Virus record (IMG/VR): IMGVR_UViG_3300025888_000011
Span: 77,153 to 141,152 of that record
Length of the DNA: 64,000 nucleotides
Origin: a virus
Direction: 5' to 3' (one strand)
Within the stretch, counting starts at the first letter, position 1; the number at the start of each line of letters is the position of its first letter. A model generated the notes under the pieces. That model was not told the DNA's origin, ran no database searches, and saw only the letters and a list, made by a program, of their open reading frames with translations. A program made the position numbers and the translations under genes. This document shows, piece after piece, positions 12,008 through 60,466 of this stretch.

Positions 12008-12629
12008 ATGATAGCAGATATTTTTAAAGTACTATTAATTGATAATGCAACTGGTGAAACATTTGCAAGAACAACATTGGAATCAGCTTCAATAGAAATA
12101 AAAGAAGAGTCAAACGAGGTGGAAGGTGGAGGTTCAGTTTATGCTATAATTCATAATGGAAAAAAAGAAACTATCGCATTGTCAGATGTAGAAGTCGACT
12201 TTGGCATTATAGCTAAACAACTTGGAGTAGACGCAGTTACAGGAGCAACAATAGCTTATGCTATGCCTAAATTTTATACAGTAGAAACAGGTTTAATAAT
12301 AACATTAGATAATGAACCATTAGTAGGTTCAATGTCTATATTTACAGAAGCAGGAGTTCCTATATTGGCAGTGGGTATTACATCAACTGTTGGAAAAGTA
12401 GTTACTCTTGCAACAGGTGTAGTAGGAGACCAAATAGAAGTAAGAACATATAAATATCTTACTGGAGTGACAACTCAGTCTATAGAAATAAACAATACAA
12501 AGTTTGCAAAAGGTGTTACTGCTGTACTTGAAACAATAGAGATAACTCCTGAAGAAGTTCCTATAAATATCATTCAATTTATCTTTGATAGTTGTGCTTT
12601 TGATGGTGGATTTAAAATTGATACAAAGA
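12008..12629 (+). CDS. Putative major tail (tube) protein, exon 1
   Basis: AAGGAGG RBS, highly expressed codon usage, beta-rich; frame enters intron after GGFKIDTK; exact junction uncertain (12622-12630). Confidence 0.6.
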
Positions 12630-13061
12630 TAATAAGATGGTTGCACAAACTATCTTAGCCTCGTACATTCAGAAATGAGTGTAGGACACAGATTTAATTG
12701 CAGGTAACTCCCAAGAGCCTTACACCACAATATAACTGAAAAGATTATATGAAGGTACGAAAGTAGAAAAAACGTAAGGATGGATATAAGGTTAAATCCT
12801 AAGTATCTGATAATATTCTACATATTATAAAACGGATGTTCATGCAGGTAAGCACCTAATGAGTAGAAATACTACGGTGAAACTTCAACGACTATCCTTG
12901 AAATAGGAGTAAAGCCACAAGCGATTGGTGGAAGAAAAAGTCTGCCCTTAACAAATAATGTTGAAGGTGAAGAAATAGTCTACTCACGTTGAGAAATCAA
13001 GTGGTCACTTAATTAACTAGAGTGACATTTATGGAGTAGCGTTCATGAGTAAATATAAAGG
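12630..13061 (+). ncRNA. Group I intron 2 (ORF-less, IA-like) in tail tube gene
   Basis: P7 TCAACGACTA (12885-94)/AAATAGTCT (12973-81); P4 TGCAGG..CATGCA; long blocks shared with intron 5; boundaries uncertain by a few nt. Confidence 0.85.
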
Positions 13062-13165
13062 CAAAACGTGACGCAGTAAAGCATGACATTGGACTTAAAG
13101 TGTTGAAAAAGAGAAGTAAGGACTCAGTTGGCAAGATTCTTAGAATTCCAATAGCAACAGTATAA
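13062..13165 (+). CDS. Putative major tail protein, exon 2 (not in ORF track)
   Basis: (A/T)KRDAVKHDIGLKVLKKRSKDSVGKILRIPIATV-stop follows the intron terminal G. Confidence 0.75.
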
Positions 13166-13183
13166 AATAAAATAATATAAATA

Positions 13184-13212
13184 TTGACATTATAGTAAAA
13201 GTGACATATAAT
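13184..13212 (+). promoter_or_regulatory. Sigma-A type promoter for endonuclease gene
   Basis: Perfect TTGACA-N17-TATAAT. Confidence 0.8.
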
Positions 13213-13322
13213 AGAATTAGAGGATAGATAAGGAGTAGCTCTTCATATCGAAAACACATTTCTCCAAATGTGTTCCTCTGTTTTACAAATGGAGGAATAA
13301 TTATTTGGAGGTAATTAATAAA

Positions 13323-14762
13323 ATGTCTAAAAAGAAAACAATAAAACAATATAAAAATGAAGTATATAAATTGGTAAATACAGAGTATGATATATTAGGT
13401 GATTACAATGGAAATAAAATTAATATACAAATGAGACATAACAATGAAAGTTGTAGTAATTTTGAATTTCCAATGAGTCCTAATAGTTTTTTAAGAGGTC
13501 AGAGGTGTCCTAAGTGTAGTGGAAGAATGAAGAAAACAACTGAGCAATTTAAGAAAGAAGTCTTTAAAATTGAAGGTGAAAAATATGATGTTTTAGGTGA
13601 TTATATAAATAATCACACTAAAATATTAATGCGACATAATTGTGAAAAATGTAATAATCATGAATATGATGTAACTCCAAAGGATTTTTTATTTGGGTAT
13701 AGATGTCCTAAATGTTTTGGTACTCCTTTAAAAACACAAGAGGAATTTGAAACAGAAGTATATAGTTTGGTACAAGATAAATATACTGTTTTAGGAAAGT
13801 ATAAAACTAATAAGACTAAAATATTAATGAAGCATAATTGTAAAGAGTGTGATAGTTTTGAATTTGAAATGTCTCCTAACTCTTTTTTAAGTAAAAATCA
13901 ACGATGTCCAAAATGTGGTGGCACTATGTTAAAGACCGATGAGCAGTTTAAAAGTGAGGTTTTTAATCTCGTAAAAGTTGAGTATGTAGTATTAGAAAAA
14001 TATATAGGTGCACATACTAAAATTTTATTTAAACACAATTCAGATAAATGTAATAATCATGAATTTCCAATGACTCCTGATAGTTTCTTATCTGGAGAGC
14101 AAAGATGTCCAAAGTGTGGTGGAACAAAAAAGAAAACAGATAAAGAATTCAAGCAACAAATATTTAGTTTAGTTGGTGATGAATACACAGTCTTAGAAGA
14201 ATATATAAATGATAGTACTAAAATAATGTTTAGACATAATAATAAAGGATGTGGTAATTATGAATATCCAGTGAAGCCTAACTCTTTCTTAAATGGACAC
14301 AGATGTCCTAAATGTAATGAATCTAAAGGTGAACAAGCAATAAGACATTACTGTAAAGATAATAATATAAATTTTACTCCACAATATATTTATGAAGACT
14401 TATTATCTGACTTAGGTAATCCATTAAAGTATGATTTTGCAATATTTAATGATATAAATAAAATAGATTTAAAATATCTAATAGAATATGATGGAGAATT
14501 CCATTATAAAGTTATAAAATATAAAAATGAAACTATAGAATGGGCTGAAGCAAAATTTGCAAAACAAAAATATCATGACAAATTAAAAAATGAATATTGT
14601 ATTGAAAATAATATAGAATTATTAAGAATACCATATTGGGAATTTGATAATTTAGAAAGAATATTAACAGATTATTTAATACACGGAAAAGAAATAAGTG
14701 AATTGGGAATAAGAGAATACATTGATGATATTGAGATTAATAATATTGCATGTAATAGCTAA
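13323..14762 (+). CDS. Free-standing putative homing endonuclease, five tandem Zn-binding repeats plus Vsr/DUF559-like nuclease
   Basis: Five ~67 aa repeats ending RCPKC; YDFAI..IEYDGEFHY..LLRIPYW; GGAGG RBS favours ATG 13323. Confidence 0.75.
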   Translation: MSKKKTIKQYKNEVYKLVNTEYDILGDYNGNKINIQMRHNNESCSNFEFPMSPNSFLRGQRCPKCSGRMKKTTEQFKKEVFKIEGEKYDVLGDYINNHTKILMRHNCEKCNNHEYDVTPKDFLFGYRCPKCFGTPLKTQEEFETEVYSLVQDKYTVLGKYKTNKTKILMKHNCKECDSFEFEMSPNSFLSKNQRCPKCGGTMLKTDEQFKSEVFNLVKVEYVVLEKYIGAHTKILFKHNSDKCNNHEFPMTPDSFLSGEQRCPKCGGTKKKTDKEFKQQIFSLVGDEYTVLEEYINDSTKIMFRHNNKGCGNYEYPVKPNSFLNGHRCPKCNESKGEQAIRHYCKDNNINFTPQYIYEDLLSDLGNPLKYDFAIFNDINKIDLKYLIEYDGEFHYKVIKYKNETIEWAEAKFAKQKYHDKLKNEYCIENNIELLRIPYWEFDNLERILTDYLIHGKEISELGIREYIDDIEINNIACNS

Positions 14763-14874
14763 GCATACAACTTATTATTATCAGAATAATATAACATAGA
14801 ATTCGTCTTTTATTCAGAAATATTATCATTAAACAAATAACAATATAATAATATAAATAAAAAGGAGACTAAAT

Positions 14875-15213
14875 ATGATTGAATACATAAATAACACAAA
14901 TACATTTAAATTAAAATATTCTTCAGTTGTATATCCACCCTTCAATATCAATGTCAATACAATATATGATTGCACAATTGAAAATAATATATATTCTATA
15001 ATAATAAATAAAATAAAAAAGGATTTTAATGTAGAATATATAAAAGCATTATTTTCACCAATAGAAGGAAAATGGAGTGATTATATAAAAACTTTTGAAA
15101 TTCCAATTATAGAAAAAGAAGTTAATCCAAATATAGAAATTAAATCTGAACCTATTAAAAATAAAATTCCAATAATATCTGAAGTAATTATTCCAAAACC
15201 AATAGTTAAATAA
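14875..15213 (+). CDS. Hypothetical protein
   Basis: AGGAG RBS, 112 aa, followed by terminator hairpin 15226-15253. Confidence 0.6.
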   Translation: MIEYINNTNTFKLKYSSVVYPPFNINVNTIYDCTIENNIYSIIINKIKKDFNVEYIKALFSPIEGKWSDYIKTFEIPIIEKEVNPNIEIKSEPIKNKIPIISEVIIPKPIVK

Positions 15214-15413
15214 TCAAGTTGTTTGAAGACAATATAAAATGTATTGTCTTTTTCTTATATAGCCTAATATTTAGCTTCTTACAAAAGGCTTAAAATGTTA
15301 GGCTATATTTTTTGTTCTAATATACATTCTCTAAAAATGTATCTAAATTCAAGCTAATTAACTAGTTGGTTTGCATTTATATATATAAAATATAAAATTA
15401 AAGGAGGGAATTT

Positions 15414-16592
15414 ATGACATCGCAAGAAGCTTTACAAAGTGCAATAGAATTATCTATAGCAAGCGTAACAGGAAATGGTACAACAAAAGTATCTCTAAAT
15501 TGTCAATATCCTATATTTGATATTGCATTAGATGTAAATTTAAAATTTGATATATTAATATATCCAACAGTTGAATTTCCTATAAATAAAATAATTGCAG
15601 TTAAAATAGGGAGTAATCCTCAAGCATTTTTTACAGTAAGTTCTAACTCAAAAGCTTTATGGTTATCCGAATTAATGGGAATTACAAGAGAATTATTTAA
15701 TATAAAAGTTACAGAAACTATTGAGTTTGAATTCCAAAATCCTGAATTAGTGCAATTTAAATTAATTACTGCATTAGATGGTAATTTTGGAAATGCTATA
15801 GATATTGTAAATAATGGATTAACAAGTGAACAGTTTCTTATTAAAGCAACAAGTATAAATCCATCCGATGAAAGTTCTGTTTCTGCTATAAGAAATGCAA
15901 TAGATAATACTACTTCTGTTGTTACAAATAATGGAACAAATGTAATAACTGTAAATAATATTTACCCTATATTTGGTAGTCAATTACCTATGACTTATAT
16001 AGTAGACAGTTTAATTACTTTTGAAAAAATATTACCTATGGGTAGTGAAATATTTATTAAACATAATGGAGTATTTTATAAAAAAGTAATAACAACTAAG
16101 AATTTTAAAAATATATGGTTTAGTGATTTAGTAGAAGACACAAGAGGAGCTTTATTTTCAAAAGTTACTGAAGAATACGAATTCACATTTGTATATGACC
16201 AAAGTATCAATATTAAATTAATCACAGGAGAATTAACTAATTTTACAAACTGTAACGTTGTTGTAAATCAATTAACATATGGATTATTTGAAGTAGCAAA
16301 TAGTAATTCACTTATCAGTAACCCTATTATTTTAAACGACTGTAATTTTGTAATTACTTATGAAGATTACGAAAGAATAATAAAAAGTGCGAGACTAGAA
16401 TTAGGCAATGACCAATATATTAACATAGATTATGTGATGGATAATTCAACCACTCCTCCTAAAAAGTATATGAGAATTTCCCATTTAGATGAAAACTATA
16501 ATGTAGAGATAAATCTTTTAATGGATATGAAAGGGATAGTTAATTATTTAGAACTATTAAAAGATATGGCAAGAGGATTATATGTTAAATAA
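15414..16592 (+). CDS. Hypothetical (virion-associated?) protein with internal duplication
   Basis: AGGAGG RBS; two similar halves (YPIF..LWLSEL..FKLITA / YPIF..IWFSDL..IKLITG). Confidence 0.6.
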   Translation: MTSQEALQSAIELSIASVTGNGTTKVSLNCQYPIFDIALDVNLKFDILIYPTVEFPINKIIAVKIGSNPQAFFTVSSNSKALWLSELMGITRELFNIKVTETIEFEFQNPELVQFKLITALDGNFGNAIDIVNNGLTSEQFLIKATSINPSDESSVSAIRNAIDNTTSVVTNNGTNVITVNNIYPIFGSQLPMTYIVDSLITFEKILPMGSEIFIKHNGVFYKKVITTKNFKNIWFSDLVEDTRGALFSKVTEEYEFTFVYDQSINIKLITGELTNFTNCNVVVNQLTYGLFEVANSNSLISNPIILNDCNFVITYEDYERIIKSARLELGNDQYINIDYVMDNSTTPPKKYMRISHLDENYNVEINLLMDMKGIVNYLELLKDMARGLYVK

Positions 16593-45634: not shown

Positions 45635-45809
45635 TACCAAAATTAAATTGATTATAACAAATAGTAATATTTGATTATATATAAAAAAGATAGAATAATT
45701 ATAAGGGTTGCAAACTGAATAATTAATTGACAAGTAGTGGTTTATCATTCCCACTACTTCTTTTGTTGCGTCAAAAAATGGTATAAAAGAAAGAAAGGAA
45801 TGATATAAA

Positions 45810-47417
45810 ATGGGTCTATTAACGAAAATGGTAAAGACAAAATGGAATAAAACGAATAAAAAATATTATCAAGAATTAGGTTATACATATACTAAAATAA
45901 AAGATGAGTTTGATGTAAAAGTTAACCATCTATCAAAATGGAGTAAAATTAATGTTGAAGTTAAATGTGATGGTGAGAATTGTGGAAAAACAATATTAGT
46001 TCAATGGACAAATTATAATATACATGTTCAAGATGATGGTAAATACTATTGCGTACATTGTACACACCATAAGGATGAGGGGTTTATATCATTTGAGCAA
46101 TGGTGTTATGATAGTTTAACGAATAAAGAGGCAAATGAAGTTTTATCTCGGTGGGATTATGATTTAAATGAATTAAAACCTAGCGAAATAAGTTTTGGAA
46201 CACAAAAAAAATATTGGTTTAAATGTTTGTCTCATATAGAACATCATAGTGAATTAAAAGGTTTATCAGGTTTTAGAAGTGGACAAAAAGGAAGCCTAGA
46301 TTGCAAACAATGTAATTCTTTTGCTCAATGGTGTATCAATAATAGTAGAGAAGATTGGTTAAATTTATGGGATTATGATTTGAATGACTGTTTTCCAACT
46401 GAAATAGCATATAGTAAACACATAAGATGTTATTTTAAGTGCCCAAAGGGAATACATAAAAGTGAACAAAAGAATATAAATAGCCTTACAAGTGGACATG
46501 AAGGAGGTATGGATTGCAAACAATGTAATTCTTTTGCACAATATTTAATAGATACATACGGCGATAATGCTTTAGACTTATATTGGGATTATAAATTAAA
46601 TGAAATTAGTCCATGGGAAATTAGTAAAAGTGGTAGAAAACCTGTATATATAAAATGCCAAGATAAATTGTATCATGAAAGTTATAGGGAAAAATGTCAT
46701 GATTTCTTTATAGGAAATAGATGTCCTTATTGTCATGGACTTAAAACTCACCCAAGAGATTCTTTAGGACAATACATAATAGATAATTTTGGAGTTAAAT
46801 TTTTAGTGAAAATATGGAGTGATAAGAATGATATGTCTCCTTTTACATATAGACCAAAATCCAGTGATGAAGTATGGTGGAAATGTTTAGATGAAAAACA
46901 CGAAGATTTTTATAGAAGAATAAGTGGCTCAAATATCAGTAGTTTTAGATGTCCTGAGTGTCAATTTTCAAAAGGTGAGAAGATGATTGAAAAATGGCTA
47001 ATAAAAAATGGATTTAAAAATTTAAATTTGTTTGATATGGATATATATAATAATCACTATAATAAATATACACCTCAAAAACCATTTGATGGACTTTTAG
47101 GATTAAAAGGTGGAAGTTTAAGTTATGATTTTTACTTACCACAACATAATCTATTGATTGAATATCAAGGTGAACAACATGAACATCCCGTAGATTTTAG
47201 AAGTGAAGGCATTGAAGTAGCAGAAGAAAATTTTATTAAACAACAAGAACATGATAGAAGAAAAAAAGAATATGCACAAGATAATAATATAGATTTATTA
47301 CCAATTTGGTATTGGGACTATGATAAGATTGATGAAATATTAAATAAAATACATAAAAATATAGAATATTTAGATACATATAACAAATTAAAAATAGTAC
47401 AGAAACGTAATAGATAA
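45810..47417 (+). CDS. Free-standing putative homing endonuclease (zinc ribbons plus Vsr/DUF559-like nuclease)
   Basis: CKQCNSFAQ repeats as in 9451/18625; SKGEK..YDFYLP..IEYQGEQH..IWYWD. Confidence 0.72.
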   Translation: MGLLTKMVKTKWNKTNKKYYQELGYTYTKIKDEFDVKVNHLSKWSKINVEVKCDGENCGKTILVQWTNYNIHVQDDGKYYCVHCTHHKDEGFISFEQWCYDSLTNKEANEVLSRWDYDLNELKPSEISFGTQKKYWFKCLSHIEHHSELKGLSGFRSGQKGSLDCKQCNSFAQWCINNSREDWLNLWDYDLNDCFPTEIAYSKHIRCYFKCPKGIHKSEQKNINSLTSGHEGGMDCKQCNSFAQYLIDTYGDNALDLYWDYKLNEISPWEISKSGRKPVYIKCQDKLYHESYREKCHDFFIGNRCPYCHGLKTHPRDSLGQYIIDNFGVKFLVKIWSDKNDMSPFTYRPKSSDEVWWKCLDEKHEDFYRRISGSNISSFRCPECQFSKGEKMIEKWLIKNGFKNLNLFDMDIYNNHYNKYTPQKPFDGLLGLKGGSLSYDFYLPQHNLLIEYQGEQHEHPVDFRSEGIEVAEENFIKQQEHDRRKKEYAQDNNIDLLPIWYWDYDKIDEILNKIHKNIEYLDTYNKLKIVQKRNR

Positions 47418-53846: not shown

Positions 53847-54000
53847 AATACATAAATTTGATTTAACTTTGACAAAAGTGTTCTAAGGGTCGCTCCTTTA
53901 GAATTAAGAGGATTAACCACCTCAACTTTTGTCGTTTACATAAAAATAAAATTAGTGGTTAGAGGTTAAAAAAATAATATAAAAAGGTGGTTGATTATTA

Positions 54001-55470
54001 ATGTGTGAAAAATGTAAGGAATTAGAAAATGATATATTTTTAGAGGATTTACCTAGAAAAAATGGAAAATGTAATAAAATTAATTGGTTTAAATCATTAG
54101 GCTATAAAGTTAAATTTATATATGATAATATCAAAGGAGAAGTTGAAATCTTAGATTATGACGGAAAGTTTCTATATATAAAATATTTAGATAATAAGCC
54201 ATTCAAAATATCAAGAGATGGATTTAGAAATTGTCAATTCGGGAAATTATTAGGATTAATTACTTGTGAATTTAAATTTGACATAGGCAGTATGTTTAAA
54301 GATGATAAAAGAGACTTAATTATTACAGATAAGCAATATGAAATAGATAAAAAAGGTCAAAATAATAAATGGTATAAATATAAATGTAATATATGTGGAT
54401 ATGAAGGATGGATTGTCGAGTTTGCATTAACTAGAGGTGATAGATGTTCTGTTTGTTCAAATCATAAGGCTATTTTAGGTATAAACACAATTTGGGATAC
54501 AGATAGATGGATGGTAGATTTAGGAGTAAGTGAAGAAGACGCTAAAAAATATACTAAAAGTTGTGGAATAAGTATTAATGTTATTTGCCCCGATTGTGGT
54601 CGTATAAAAGATAAAATTACTATAGCTAAGATACACGATAGACATTCAATATCATGTTCTTGTGGAGATTCGACTAGCTATCCAGAGAAAATCATGTTTT
54701 CAGTATTAGAGCAATTAAATTTAGATTTTAAACCACAATTGACAAAATCTACATTTGAGTGGTGTGAAGAATATAGATATGATTTTTACATAACCTCTAT
54801 AAATGGGATTTTAGAGGTAAATGGATTGCAACATTACGAAGAGTCTTTTGAAAGAATGGGTGGACGTGTAAAAATAGTAGCTGATGAGAAAGAAAATGAT
54901 AAAATAAAAAAAGAGTTAGCTTTAAAAAATGGAGTAAAAGAAGATAATTATATAGTGATAGATTGTAGAAAATCAGAACTTGAATTTATTAAAGAGAGTG
55001 TATTAGATAGTAATTTATCTATAGTATTTAATTTAAACAAAGTTGATTGGTTAAAAGCTGAAGAGTTTGCATTGAAAAATTTAGTCAAACTGGCTTGTGA
55101 GATGAAACGTGATACCCCTAATATGACTACTGTAGACATAGGAGTAATCATGAAGCTTAGTAAAAGTACAATAACGAGATATCTAAAAAAAGGTTCATTA
55201 CTTGGTTGGTGTAATTATGACGCGAAAGAAGAAATAAAAAAATGTGGCAATAGGATTGCAGGTAAGAATAAAAAGAATATAGAAATATTTAAAGATGGAA
55301 TTTCGTTAGGAAGATTTGAAAGTTGTGCAGAATTAGAAAGGCAAAGTGAAGATTTATTCAGTGCAAAATTGGTAAGAAGCGAGATGTCATATGTGTGTAA
55401 TGGTCTTAAATCTCAATACAAAGGATATACATTTAAATATGAAGAAGATAAAATAAATAATATTAGTTAA
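54001..55470 (+). CDS. Free-standing putative homing endonuclease (Zn motifs, PD-(D/E)XK-like, HTH and NUMOD1-like C-terminus)
   Basis: SYPEK..RYDFYI..LEVNGLQHY; FES..E..S.VCNG..YKGYTFKY. Confidence 0.7.
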   Translation: MCEKCKELENDIFLEDLPRKNGKCNKINWFKSLGYKVKFIYDNIKGEVEILDYDGKFLYIKYLDNKPFKISRDGFRNCQFGKLLGLITCEFKFDIGSMFKDDKRDLIITDKQYEIDKKGQNNKWYKYKCNICGYEGWIVEFALTRGDRCSVCSNHKAILGINTIWDTDRWMVDLGVSEEDAKKYTKSCGISINVICPDCGRIKDKITIAKIHDRHSISCSCGDSTSYPEKIMFSVLEQLNLDFKPQLTKSTFEWCEEYRYDFYITSINGILEVNGLQHYEESFERMGGRVKIVADEKENDKIKKELALKNGVKEDNYIVIDCRKSELEFIKESVLDSNLSIVFNLNKVDWLKAEEFALKNLVKLACEMKRDTPNMTTVDIGVIMKLSKSTITRYLKKGSLLGWCNYDAKEEIKKCGNRIAGKNKKNIEIFKDGISLGRFESCAELERQSEDLFSAKLVRSEMSYVCNGLKSQYKGYTFKYEEDKINNIS

Positions 55471-58777: not shown

Positions 58778-59961
58778 AGTCTAAAATGTGCCGACTAGGG
58801 TAGAAATATTCCTATGAAGAAACAAACCAATATCGGTAGAAGCTAAATTATAAAAATAAATCCAATACCTCAATAAAAACTTTAATATGTCACCAACATA
58901 AAAGTATAGAATATAGTAATATAAATATAATATAAAAAAGGAAGCGAAATTAATGAAAAATAAGTATGGTCAAATCTATATGATAACTAATAAAATAGAT
59001 GGGAAAGTCTACATAGGTAAAACCGTGGGTAGAGATGTTCTCAAAGATAGATATAATGGTAATTTACTATCAACGCATAATTTACATTTAAAAAATTCTA
59101 TTTTAAAATATGAAATACAGAATTTTGAGATTAGCACATTATGTTGGGCAAACTCAAATGAGGAATTAGGAAATAAAGAAAAAGAATATATTTTAAAATA
59201 TGATGCAATGAATGATAAAAAAGGATATAACATGCATGAGGGTGGACAAGGTGGAAGAATGAGTGCTGAAATTAATCTTATAATTGGAGAAAAATCAAAG
59301 GAGTTTTGGGATAGTCATTCTGAAAGAAAACTTGAACTTGCTAAAAGTATGGTTGGTGAAAATAATTTTCTTGTAAAGCTAGGTGGTCATAACGATGAAA
59401 CAAAATTAAAAATGAGTAATTCGAGAAAACAACTATTAAAAGACCATAAAGACATTTTAGATAAGTCATTGGAAGCTTGTAACACACCTCAAGCTATTAG
59501 AAATAGAGTAATATCACAAAGCAAATTTTGGAATATTCAATATGATTTAGGTATGAATGAATTAAATAGATTTCATACGATGAAGGATATGTATAATTTT
59601 ATGATTAAAAATAATATTGAGACAAATATAACTTATGGTGGATTTAAAAATAAGAGCAAACTGAATAAGGTGTTTGGTGAACACCAATATAAAGGATTTT
59701 ATTGGAGAAAAATTGGGAAATGATTTTTATAACAAGCTAGTACCGAGATAAAGCACATTATAATAGATGTGGCTCATCGTAACGCATAGAAGTTGAAACT
59801 GTGTTTTAATGCAGAACAAAATACTTCCACGAGTGGTTTGCACCTAAACAAGTAAAGTTGAAGGTGAAAATGTATGCTAGACTGGGTAGTATTGACCTAC
59901 CGATTAAAATGAGGGAAACCTCCAGAGCAGTAGATAAAAAGCTACTGGGTAATTACGTACG
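58778..59961 (+). mobile_element. Group I intron 4 carrying a GIY-YIG endonuclease
   Basis: P1 UCGGU/GCCGA; P7 AACGCATA (59781-88)/TATGCT (59873-78); terminal G59961; in-frame join DFG|AGIEEI. Confidence 0.92.
58953..59723 (+). CDS. Intron-encoded GIY-YIG homing endonuclease
   Basis: GQIYMITNKIDGKVYIGKT..R..E..GYN; NUMOD3-like HNDETKLKMS. Confidence 0.9.
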   Translation: MKNKYGQIYMITNKIDGKVYIGKTVGRDVLKDRYNGNLLSTHNLHLKNSILKYEIQNFEISTLCWANSNEELGNKEKEYILKYDAMNDKKGYNMHEGGQGGRMSAEINLIIGEKSKEFWDSHSERKLELAKSMVGENNFLVKLGGHNDETKLKMSNSRKQLLKDHKDILDKSLEACNTPQAIRNRVISQSKFWNIQYDLGMNELNRFHTMKDMYNFMIKNNIETNITYGGFKNKSKLNKVFGEHQYKGFYWRKIGK

Positions 59962-60061
59962 GCAGGTATAGAAGAAATAACTAAGGGAATTCAGGTAGTG
60001 GGAACAGTTTCGTCCCAAACAGCAAAACTTACCTCAGATGAAACAGAAGCAATGATTGGAG
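59962..60061 (+). CDS. Tape measure protein, ~100 nt exon 2 (not in ORF track)
   Basis: AGIEEITKGIQVVGTVSSQTAKLTSDETEAMIG between two introns. Confidence 0.85.
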
Positions 60062-60466
60062 TAACAAAAATAATTTAATAATTATAGCTCCCTTTGTCAA
60101 GTAATTGGCATAGCAAATAACACATATATGCAGGTAACTCCTAAAGCCTTACACTAAAACGGAATAGCGAATAGCTATATATGGAATGGTACGAAAGTAG
60201 AAAAAACGTAAGGATGATTAAATGGTTAAATCCTAATTAATCGTAAACAATGGATGTTCATGCAGGGAATTAGCGAATAGCTTTGCCCTCAACGACTATC
60301 TCGAAAGAGAGTAAAACCGTAAGCGATTGACGGAGGAAAAGTGTTACTCCTTATTTAATAAGGATGGTGAAATAGTCTCGACTCTATATGAGAGTATAGG
60401 AAGTTTATTATATTAAATTAATATAAAAGAACTGCTTGGATTTAGCAAATTTAGGTGAAGATTACG
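60062..60466 (+). ncRNA. Group I intron 5 (ORF-less, IA-like)
   Basis: P7 CAACGACTA (60290-98)/AAATAGTCT (60370-78); long blocks shared with intron 2; boundaries +/-1 nt. Confidence 0.87.

Follow-up and report, generated by a model that had tools for sequence, protein, structure and literature searches.

A recurrent junction-forming leader RNA with a gene-specific loop ahead of phage homing-endonuclease genes recalls the int-alpA motif

Our analysis of a 64,000-nucleotide stretch of phage DNA (the window, from IMG/VR virus record IMGVR_UViG_3300025888_000011) shows that three endonuclease genes in it are preceded by structured leader RNAs of one recurrent, cis-located family. We count 16 members of this family: this phage has six of them, and the other ten come from further uncultured phages and from metagenome contigs. 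The window leaders share a three-way junction made of a closing stem (P1), the letters UAG, a hairpin (P2) with a UAGCU-type loop, the letters GAAAA, a second hairpin (P3) and the 3' strand of the closing stem (P1'). The P3 loop differs between members and co-varies with two downstream sites, a segment that we call box 1 and the ribosome-binding site (RBS) of the member's own gene. It seems fairly probable that the leaders are the 5' untranslated regions (UTRs) of early-type mRNAs built on the design of int-alpA (Rfam RF02996), in which the P3 loop, lying on the Shine-Dalgarno (SD) sequence, would throttle translation in cis while box 1 competes for it. An initial annotation made from the letters alone had proposed a recurrent leader of this kind, and all the strings that it quoted were found where it had placed them.

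The junction and its members

The phage record has 195,571 bp and a G+C content of about 25%, and the genome coordinates used below place the window at its bases 6608-70607. The three endonuclease genes start at window positions 13323 (479 aa), 54001 (489 aa) and 45810 (535 aa), and we number their leaders 1, 2 and 3. The proteins are mutually paralogous, match PHROG 559/9084 ('HNH/homing endonuclease') and contain repeats of a treble-clef zinc finger (DUF4379/CapR). In our own reading, the core motif at the C-terminus, E-x2-G-x2-H...D-x2-K, recalls Vsr/EDxHD-type nucleases, and the whole genome has at least eight such genes. The endonucleases are free-standing, as first annotated: about 150 nt, including a short last exon, separate leader 1 from the end of the group I intron that precedes the first gene.

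MAFFT misaligned the structures of three of five copies, so we seeded a covariance model from the two alignable ones, leader 1 and a foreign copy (L013) upstream of an endonuclease gene in another phage record. This model (R1) was iterated into R2 and R3 and complemented by two DNA-pattern scans and by whole-record searches; the loose pattern returned more than 111 stretches and only one new true member. When R1 searched 90 kb on both strands with filters off, copies Ec and Ed (genome 73606 and 77873, outside the window) ranked second and third and leader 2 ranked fifth, which is an independent test of the early claim that the same logic recurs in different sequences. Besides Ec and Ed, which fold like the window leaders, the genome has E0 (genome 3936), which shares the layout. 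The members from elsewhere are L013 and four others on viral contigs (L034, L038, L123, L167), four on metagenome contigs (L151, with L153; L154; L156; L157), and L160, on a contig of a Clostridia metagenome-assembled genome (MAG), the sole cellular hit. A search of 150 genomes from the order of this MAG gave no further copy, and blastn of two leaders against GenBank phages returned chance AT-rich matches only.

Several lines of evidence point to a conserved RNA fold. Single-sequence minimum-energy folds agree on the same junction, with folding z-scores of -3.8, -3.0 and -2.5 for leaders 1, 2 and 3 and of -4.95 for the junction of leader 2 alone. Among the 13 copies detected by the models, 92.6% of the cells pair, against 44-51% when the partners are slid, and each of the 19 modelled pairs has compensatory double changes, in an alignment that was fitted to the model. 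About 15 G-U cells in this alignment fit an RNA of the sense strand. Leader 3, a divergent copy, and E0 were not detected by the covariance models; both are assigned by single-sequence folds and shared junction letters. The features of the window leaders are the following.

13184..13212, plus strand: promoter of leader 1, of sigma-70 type (TTGACA-17-TATAAT, 12/12), with the end of the -10 element 6 nt upstream of P1
13219..13279, plus strand: three-way junction of leader 1 (R3 score 79 bits), with P1 formed by AGAGGA (13219-13224) and TCCTCT (13274-13279), P2 at 13227-13249 (loop UAGCU) followed by GAAAA, and P3 at 13254-13273 (loop CTCC, in RNA CUCC)
13287..13297, plus strand: box 1 of leader 1, AAATGGAGGAA, an SD-like repeat complementary to the P3 loop and also to P1' plus the U run
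13303..13325, plus strand: RBS of leader 1, ATTTGGAGG (13303-13311), and ATG (13323-13325) of the 479-aa zinc-finger-repeat endonuclease
53871..53933, plus strand: three-way junction of leader 2, with P1 of 9 bp (53871-53879 with 53925-53933), P2 at 53880-53904 (loop UCGCU) and P3 at 53908-53923 (loop AUUAACCA)
53955..53961, plus strand: box 1 of leader 2, GTGGTTA, complementary to the P3 loop
53973..53982, plus strand: copy of the AATAATATAA signal (discussed below), between box 1 and the RBS of leader 2
53985..54003, plus strand: RBS region of leader 2, AGGTGGTTGAT (53985-53995), and ATG (54001) of the 489-aa endonuclease
45685..45764, plus strand: three-way junction of leader 3, with P1 formed by AAAAGA (45685-45690) and TCTTTT (45759-45764), P2 at 45696-45725 and P3 at 45733-45758 (loop UUUAUCAUUC)
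45797..45812, plus strand: RBS region of leader 3, GGAATGATA (45797-45805), and ATG (45810) of the 535-aa endonuclease

Leader 3 had been annotated as a single hairpin. The hairpin is there, but the unconstrained minimum-energy fold makes it the P3 of a full junction. Across the family, P1 has 5-10 bp and is followed by UA(G), by a P2 that typically reads GAUAAnnn-(A)UUAGCUA(C)-nnnUAUC, by GAAAA and by a P3 of variable sequence. Then come 0-2 nt and P1', after which 9-21 nt of A/U-rich linker lead to box 1 and a further 15-30 nt to the RBS and the start codon. In almost every case the P2 loop holds the palindrome AGCU, often as UAGCUA (for example at window 13236-13240), which would allow loop-loop dimerisation between two leaders.

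The AGCT palindrome might also be taken as the mark of a homing or recombination site acting at the DNA level, and the group I intron core that lies 230-330 nt upstream of leader 1 might suggest that the leader is a fragment of that intron. We consider either idea extremely improbable. A DNA site does not account for G-U pairs being tolerated on the sense strand only, nor for the lower scores of the reverse strand. A leader 1 belonging to a group I intron (RF00028) was considered and rejected: the intron is real but lies upstream, and its last exon and a stop codon intervene. No RF00028 match covers any leader, and most members have no intron nearby.

The P3 loop and its two partners

In leader 1, ATTTGGAG at 13303-13310 complements CTCCAAAT. 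In leader 2, P3 reads GAGG-ATTAACCA-CCTC and is complementary to AGGTGGTTGAT with one G-U pair, and in leader 3 the P3 loop TTTATCATTC complements GGAATGATA. To quantify this pattern we used 14 non-redundant members, in which the pairing energies of each loop with its own RBS sum to -122 kcal/mol, against -68 +/- 6 kcal/mol for permuted partners (z -8.8, p <= 2e-5). This bears out the initial proposal that the loop co-varies with the RBS of each gene. Taking the whole downstream region instead of the RBS gives a permutation z of -11.2.

The RBS is only one of two partners, and the other, the decoy-like box 1, had been missed by the initial annotation. Its complementarity to the P3 loop is no less specific than that of the RBS, with the own partner ranking first in 10 of 11 members, and this covariation is also significant (p <= 2e-5). 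Box 1 is present in 13 of the 14 non-redundant members, if weakly in leader 3. The exception is L167, whose only complementary box is the SD sequence itself, sitting where box 1 is elsewhere. Box 1 stands at a constant distance after P1' (9-21 nt), which favours a contact in cis over one in trans. The pair formed by L156 and L151 illustrates the pattern: promoter, P1 and P2 are identical, the P3 loops differ (UUCCCGAUUG and AAAGCCUUG), and the boxes shift in step with them (AAUCGGGAA and AAUCGGGGG in the former, CAAGGC and AAAGGCGG in the latter). The idea that box 1 is an upstream open reading frame was dropped, since it has no consistent start codon.

We therefore propose the following working model for these leaders. 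Transcription would start at the first base of P1 wherever a promoter is visible. The P3 loop would pair with the SD region, hiding the RBS and keeping the translation of a potentially harmful gene low, and box 1 would compete for the loop, either setting the level of repression or allowing it to be switched. The comparisons show the fold and its covariation, the covariation of loop, box 1 and RBS, the position of the promoter and the gene contexts; from there we infer pairing in vivo, a lowering of translation by it and an action in cis. The form of the contact may differ between members. The family was first described as pseudoknot-type, and a long-range, pseudoknot-like contact is what we propose for the other members. 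In leader 1 the P3 loop has only 4 nt, so that a pseudoknot is impossible, and the pairing would be made by an extended alternative hairpin instead. In the minimum-energy fold of the full leader 1, a 23-bp hairpin displaces P1 and P3 and buries both box 1 and the RBS, with the SD bases predicted to be only 7% unpaired, which speaks for repression.

A side observation concerns the inner part of this hairpin. At 13271-13299, P1' and the U run pair with box 1 to give a hairpin of 13 bp with a T-rich tail behind it, which a scan flagged as terminator-like and which may be an attenuator in competition with P1. It is found in leader 1 only, pairing of this type between P1' and box 1 not being seen among the other members.

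Several observations weigh against repression through the P3 loop. In leader 1 and in Ec the loop is a generic anti-SD sequence, which pairs equally well with 27-34% of the RBSs of the genome. Pairing with box 1 equals or beats pairing with the RBS, so the resting state could be 'on'. Nested folds leave the SD bases 0.5-0.8 unpaired in several members (0.7-0.8 in leader 2, Ec and Ed), which means that repression there would depend on a pseudoknot outside the scope of the folding tool. RNAalifold recovers only P1 from the gappy model alignment. Finally, the conserved core of P2 and GAAAA has no role in this model, and its conservation is left unexplained by it.

The core would find a role if it were a sensor that binds a ligand, a widely conserved host protein or the ribosome, and so decides whether the P3 loop occupies box 1 (the on state) or the RBS (the off state). 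UAG, UAGCU and GAAAA are conserved from elements with 25% G+C to elements with 48% G+C and in the int-alpA copies of Gammaproteobacteria, and the nearly equal energies of the two loop pairings would suit a two-state switch. Yet the downstream genes have no common metabolic theme and some int-alpA copies have another P2 loop, GACG, and we regard a sensor as quite unlikely. The model of a P3 loop that throttles translation in cis remains the one that we favour.

Promoters, downstream genes and neighbouring introns

A sigma-70-like promoter precedes the junction in 11 of the 16 members, with the end of its -10 element 5-8 nt before P1, so that the predicted start of transcription falls at P1. The match is complete (12/12) in leader 1, L013, L034 and L167, and reaches 9-11/12 in seven others, mostly with an extended -10 TG; the promoter of E0 was identified by eye. 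These 11 members have no other visible promoter before the gene, which favours action in cis over action in trans. Copy Ec has no clear sigma-70 promoter; it carries an extra hairpin, TTGGAGTAATTAGCTG...TTACTCCA, between a AATAATATAA signal and the junction (genome 73545-73600; L017 2938-2993).

The position of the promoter bears on an alternative in which the junction forms a small RNA of its own, about 65-70 nt long and with its 3' end at the U-rich run, or else a transcription attenuator. As a small RNA it would act in trans, its P3 loop binding the mRNA of the neighbouring gene in the manner of a type I antitoxin or an antisense brake. A short U-rich run does follow P1', Rfam files int-alpA as a small RNA, and the GC-rich int-alpA copies have a P1 of 8 GC-rich bp followed by a U run. 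The genome-wide AATAATATAA signal could start a second transcript, without the junction, in E0, leader 2, Ed and L160, and the terminator-like hairpin of leader 1 (13271-13299) would fit a small RNA or an attenuator. Yet P1 has only 5-6 weak pairs in the AT-rich members, and the run after P1' holds about 4 U in 8 by hand count, against about 3 expected at this composition. The fixed distance of box 1 from P1' would be needless for an RNA acting in trans. Moreover, the promoter that transcribes the junction is the only visible one in 11 members, so the gene needs read-through. We judge this alternative unlikely.

The AATAATATAA signal is itself conspicuous. This 10-mer (extended consensus TAnAATAATATAAAA) occurs 96 times in the whole genome against about 16 expected, matches the gene strand and lies at a median of 7 nt upstream of the SD sequence (for example at window 13171-13180, 14847-14856 and 53973-53982); 14 copies are followed by a TTGACA-like hexamer. 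Its role may be that of a phage-specific promoter, or it may serve in processing or in translation. Were it to start transcripts, a timing like that of I-TevI would be added to the regulation: long transcripts would be silent, and a phage-specific promoter between junction and RBS would later give short, translatable mRNAs. The abundance of the signal, its agreement with the gene strand, its proximity to the SD sequence and its location between box 1 and RBS in four members (leader 2, Ed, E0 and L160) are in line with such timing, which has a precedent in T4 (PMC2988022). On the other hand, AATAATATAA is only a candidate promoter; the PF00940 search for a T7-type RNA polymerase came back empty, as did its control. 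Also, leader 1, leader 3, Ec and all the members from outside this phage group lack the signal between box 1 and RBS, so that the timing would at best be an added layer in a subset of members. As an account of the leaders it is possible but doubtful.

The genes downstream of the leaders are diverse. Homing-endonuclease-type genes follow 13 of the 16 members and have at least three architectures: zinc-finger repeats with a Vsr-like core, HNH, and a gene sharing only the N-terminal domain PHROG 12131. Two members head replication-initiator (O/DnaD-like) genes and one heads a small gene of 76 codons. The notion that the family travels with nucleases thus applies to most members and to several nuclease types, but not to these three. 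Conversely, some homologous endonucleases have no leader. One paralogue, Ee (genome 179,518-179,640, minus strand, L018), and its homologue in another phage (L004 1380-1490) lack the junction and share another, conserved hairpin with compensatory changes (GTATACTCAAA/TTTGAGTATAC against GTAGACTTGAA/TTCAAGCTAC), the conserved loop of which, ATATTATTGG, is not complementary to the RBS.

Leaders and proteins do not always resemble each other in parallel: the protein encoded downstream of L013 resembles the endonuclease of leader 2, whereas its leader resembles leader 1. The other leader-carrying phages have no detectable homologue of the structural genes that neighbour the leaders in this phage, and tblastn of the neighbouring virion protein against GenBank phages gave no match. 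This discordance, together with the lack of detectable homologues among the neighbours, indicates that the leader behaves as a shuffled module. One could then see in it a portable promoter with a 5'-terminal stabilising structure, retained because mobile genes can thereby be expressed at any site and because it provides homology for the shuffling of cassettes, as PeSL elements do, the match between loop and RBS being non-regulatory. P1 begins at the predicted +1, and 5'-terminal stems protect the mRNAs of Firmicutes against 5'-end-dependent decay. The leader is common to phages whose structural genes around it have no detectable homology, its similarity is discordant with that of the proteins, as in L013, and PeSL cassettes are a precedent (PMC4122927). 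But the member-specific covariation of the loop with two sites and the pair of L156 and L151 would go unaccounted for, and we find this explanation improbable.

The surroundings of the leaders revealed other elements. A group I intron lacking an open reading frame (ORF), at window 12659-13077, appears to split a virion structural gene (12008-12658). Its core, CAACGACTA...GAAATAGTC, lies at 12886-12980. Into this core falls the only nucleotide match of the region among GenBank phages (12880-12940), which covers 61 nt, at 86% identity, of a part of Staphylococcus phage PMBT8 that has no annotation. The short last exon (13078-13166, AVKHDIGLKV...ATV*) apparently ends at 13166, and the free-standing endonuclease follows about 160 nt further on, an arrangement that resembles, by analogy, the collaborative homing of introns and endonucleases. 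A second, paralogous group I intron (59723-60436) precedes an ORF of 1188 codons, with 81% identity to the first over about 110 nt and a sub-threshold RF00028 match at 60210-60400 (20 bits, E 0.014). The 400 nt before this match (59723-60130) also appear to be structured, perhaps with a mini-exon or a further intron in them. A tRNA scan of the window found no tRNA.

Comparison with int-alpA and other known systems

The initial annotation regarded these leaders as a possibly undescribed family. Indeed, no family of Rfam 15 matches them at any threshold tried, but their architecture and signature nucleotides are those of int-alpA. The latter is an orphan motif filed by Rfam as a small RNA, and the main text of the survey of 224 motifs (PMC5737381) is silent on it; we found no functional study of int-alpA in the searchable literature. 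The RF02996 model (gathering score 35.8 bits) has no match in the window, at 12500-15500 (E <= 10) or in seven small loci (E <= 1), nor in any of the six leaders of this genome (E <= 10, 1 kb) or the whole genome (E <= 1).

Nevertheless, the likeness is extensive. Both RNAs have about 70 nt in the order P1, UAG, P2, (C)GAAAA, P3, P1', U-rich run and purine box, and the purine box (model positions 58-71) complements the P3 loop as box 1 does in the leaders. Some genuine int-alpA copies carry a UAGCU or UCGCU loop in P2, others GACG. Both motifs stand ahead of swappable genes in phage or mobile-element contexts. The logic of two boxes is also present, for example a CCUUCA-type loop with UGAAGG and then UGAAGGGGG, and a permutation over 14 distinct genuine copies supports it (z -3.0). 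The int-alpA copy L171 (51.6 bits with the Rfam model) reads P1 - CUAG - P2 - CGAAAA - P3 - CU - P1' - U run - AAgGG; it has a UAGCU loop in P2 and a P3 loop that complements two downstream UUAAGGC boxes, the second of them right before the ATG. R3 ranks L171 first and places the hit precisely on the int-alpA site (24.2 bits, E 3e-4); of the 19 genuine int-alpA copies it reaches only 2 at E <= 1.

There are also differences. Relative to int-alpA, the leaders have a longer P2 (GAUAAnnn...nnnUAUC), AT-rich stems and a P1 of 5-6 bp instead of 8 GC-rich bp, and they precede mostly homing endonucleases. All the genuine int-alpA copies that we sampled come from genomes of Gammaproteobacteria, whereas the one cellular hit of the leaders is the Clostridia MAG contig. 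No int-alpA copy was found in the late region of phage P22. Because layout, junction letters, P2 loop and two-box logic are shared, and because R3 hits a genuine copy, we read the leaders, on comparison of their sequences, as a divergent AT-rich variant of the int-alpA design that does not belong to the family by Rfam score.

If so, the clade extends the design beyond the sampled proteobacterial genomes into very AT-rich uncultured phages, links it to homing endonucleases of several families, and shows that a whole AT-rich branch of it escapes the Rfam model. It also provides natural compensatory pairs, in which loop, decoy and RBS change jointly while the remaining leader is identical. An orphan motif would thereby gain a hypothesis that can be tested with reporters, that of a re-programmable anti-SD leader serving as the mobile genes' own expression throttle. 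A broader and more speculative reading, to which we give little credence, is that the int-alpA design is a programmable two-state governor of translation for selfish and accessory phage genes in Gram-negative and Gram-positive hosts. The hypervariable P3 loop would toggle between the decoy box 1 and the SD sequence, and the invariant core would either sense a universally conserved host component (the ribosome, a ribosomal protein or a small molecule) or dimerise through the AGCU palindrome. The expression of the cargo gene would then be tied to the state of the host.

A functional parallel is the RBS occlusion that controls I-TevI, I-TevII, I-TevIII and segB of T4 and mobE of phage Aeh1 (PMC2988022). 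There, as proposed for the leaders, an upstream RNA occludes the SD sequence of an endonuclease gene; leader 1 is predicted to form such a long local hairpin, and four members carry a possible internal start signal at the place of the T4 late promoter. But in T4 the occlusion is due to simple and unrelated hairpins that form on read-through transcripts, whereas the leaders have a conserved junction at the predicted 5' end of a transcript from their own promoter, use a hairpin loop as anti-RBS, have a second target box and also head genes that do not encode nucleases.

The PeSL cassettes of T4-like phages (PMC2839356, PMC4122927) are likewise small conserved modules of promoter and structure that flank variable or mobile genes. 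They too are common to otherwise dissimilar phages, which suggests modular shuffling, and as a shuffled module of this make-up they are the nearest precedent for the leaders. However, a PeSL has its early promoter downstream of a terminator stem-loop and lacks the anti-RBS logic; the leaders do not have this order, since their structure follows the promoter and forms part of the 5' UTR. Some riboswitches, namely SAM-II, preQ1-II and the L5-L13 contact of cobalamin riboswitches, hide the SD sequence in a pseudoknot or a kissing loop. The leaders resemble them in that a loop of the folded domain is predicted to make a long-range tertiary pairing with the RBS. They differ from them in having no ligand or metabolic gene context, and in a pairing sequence that is hypervariable instead of conserved.

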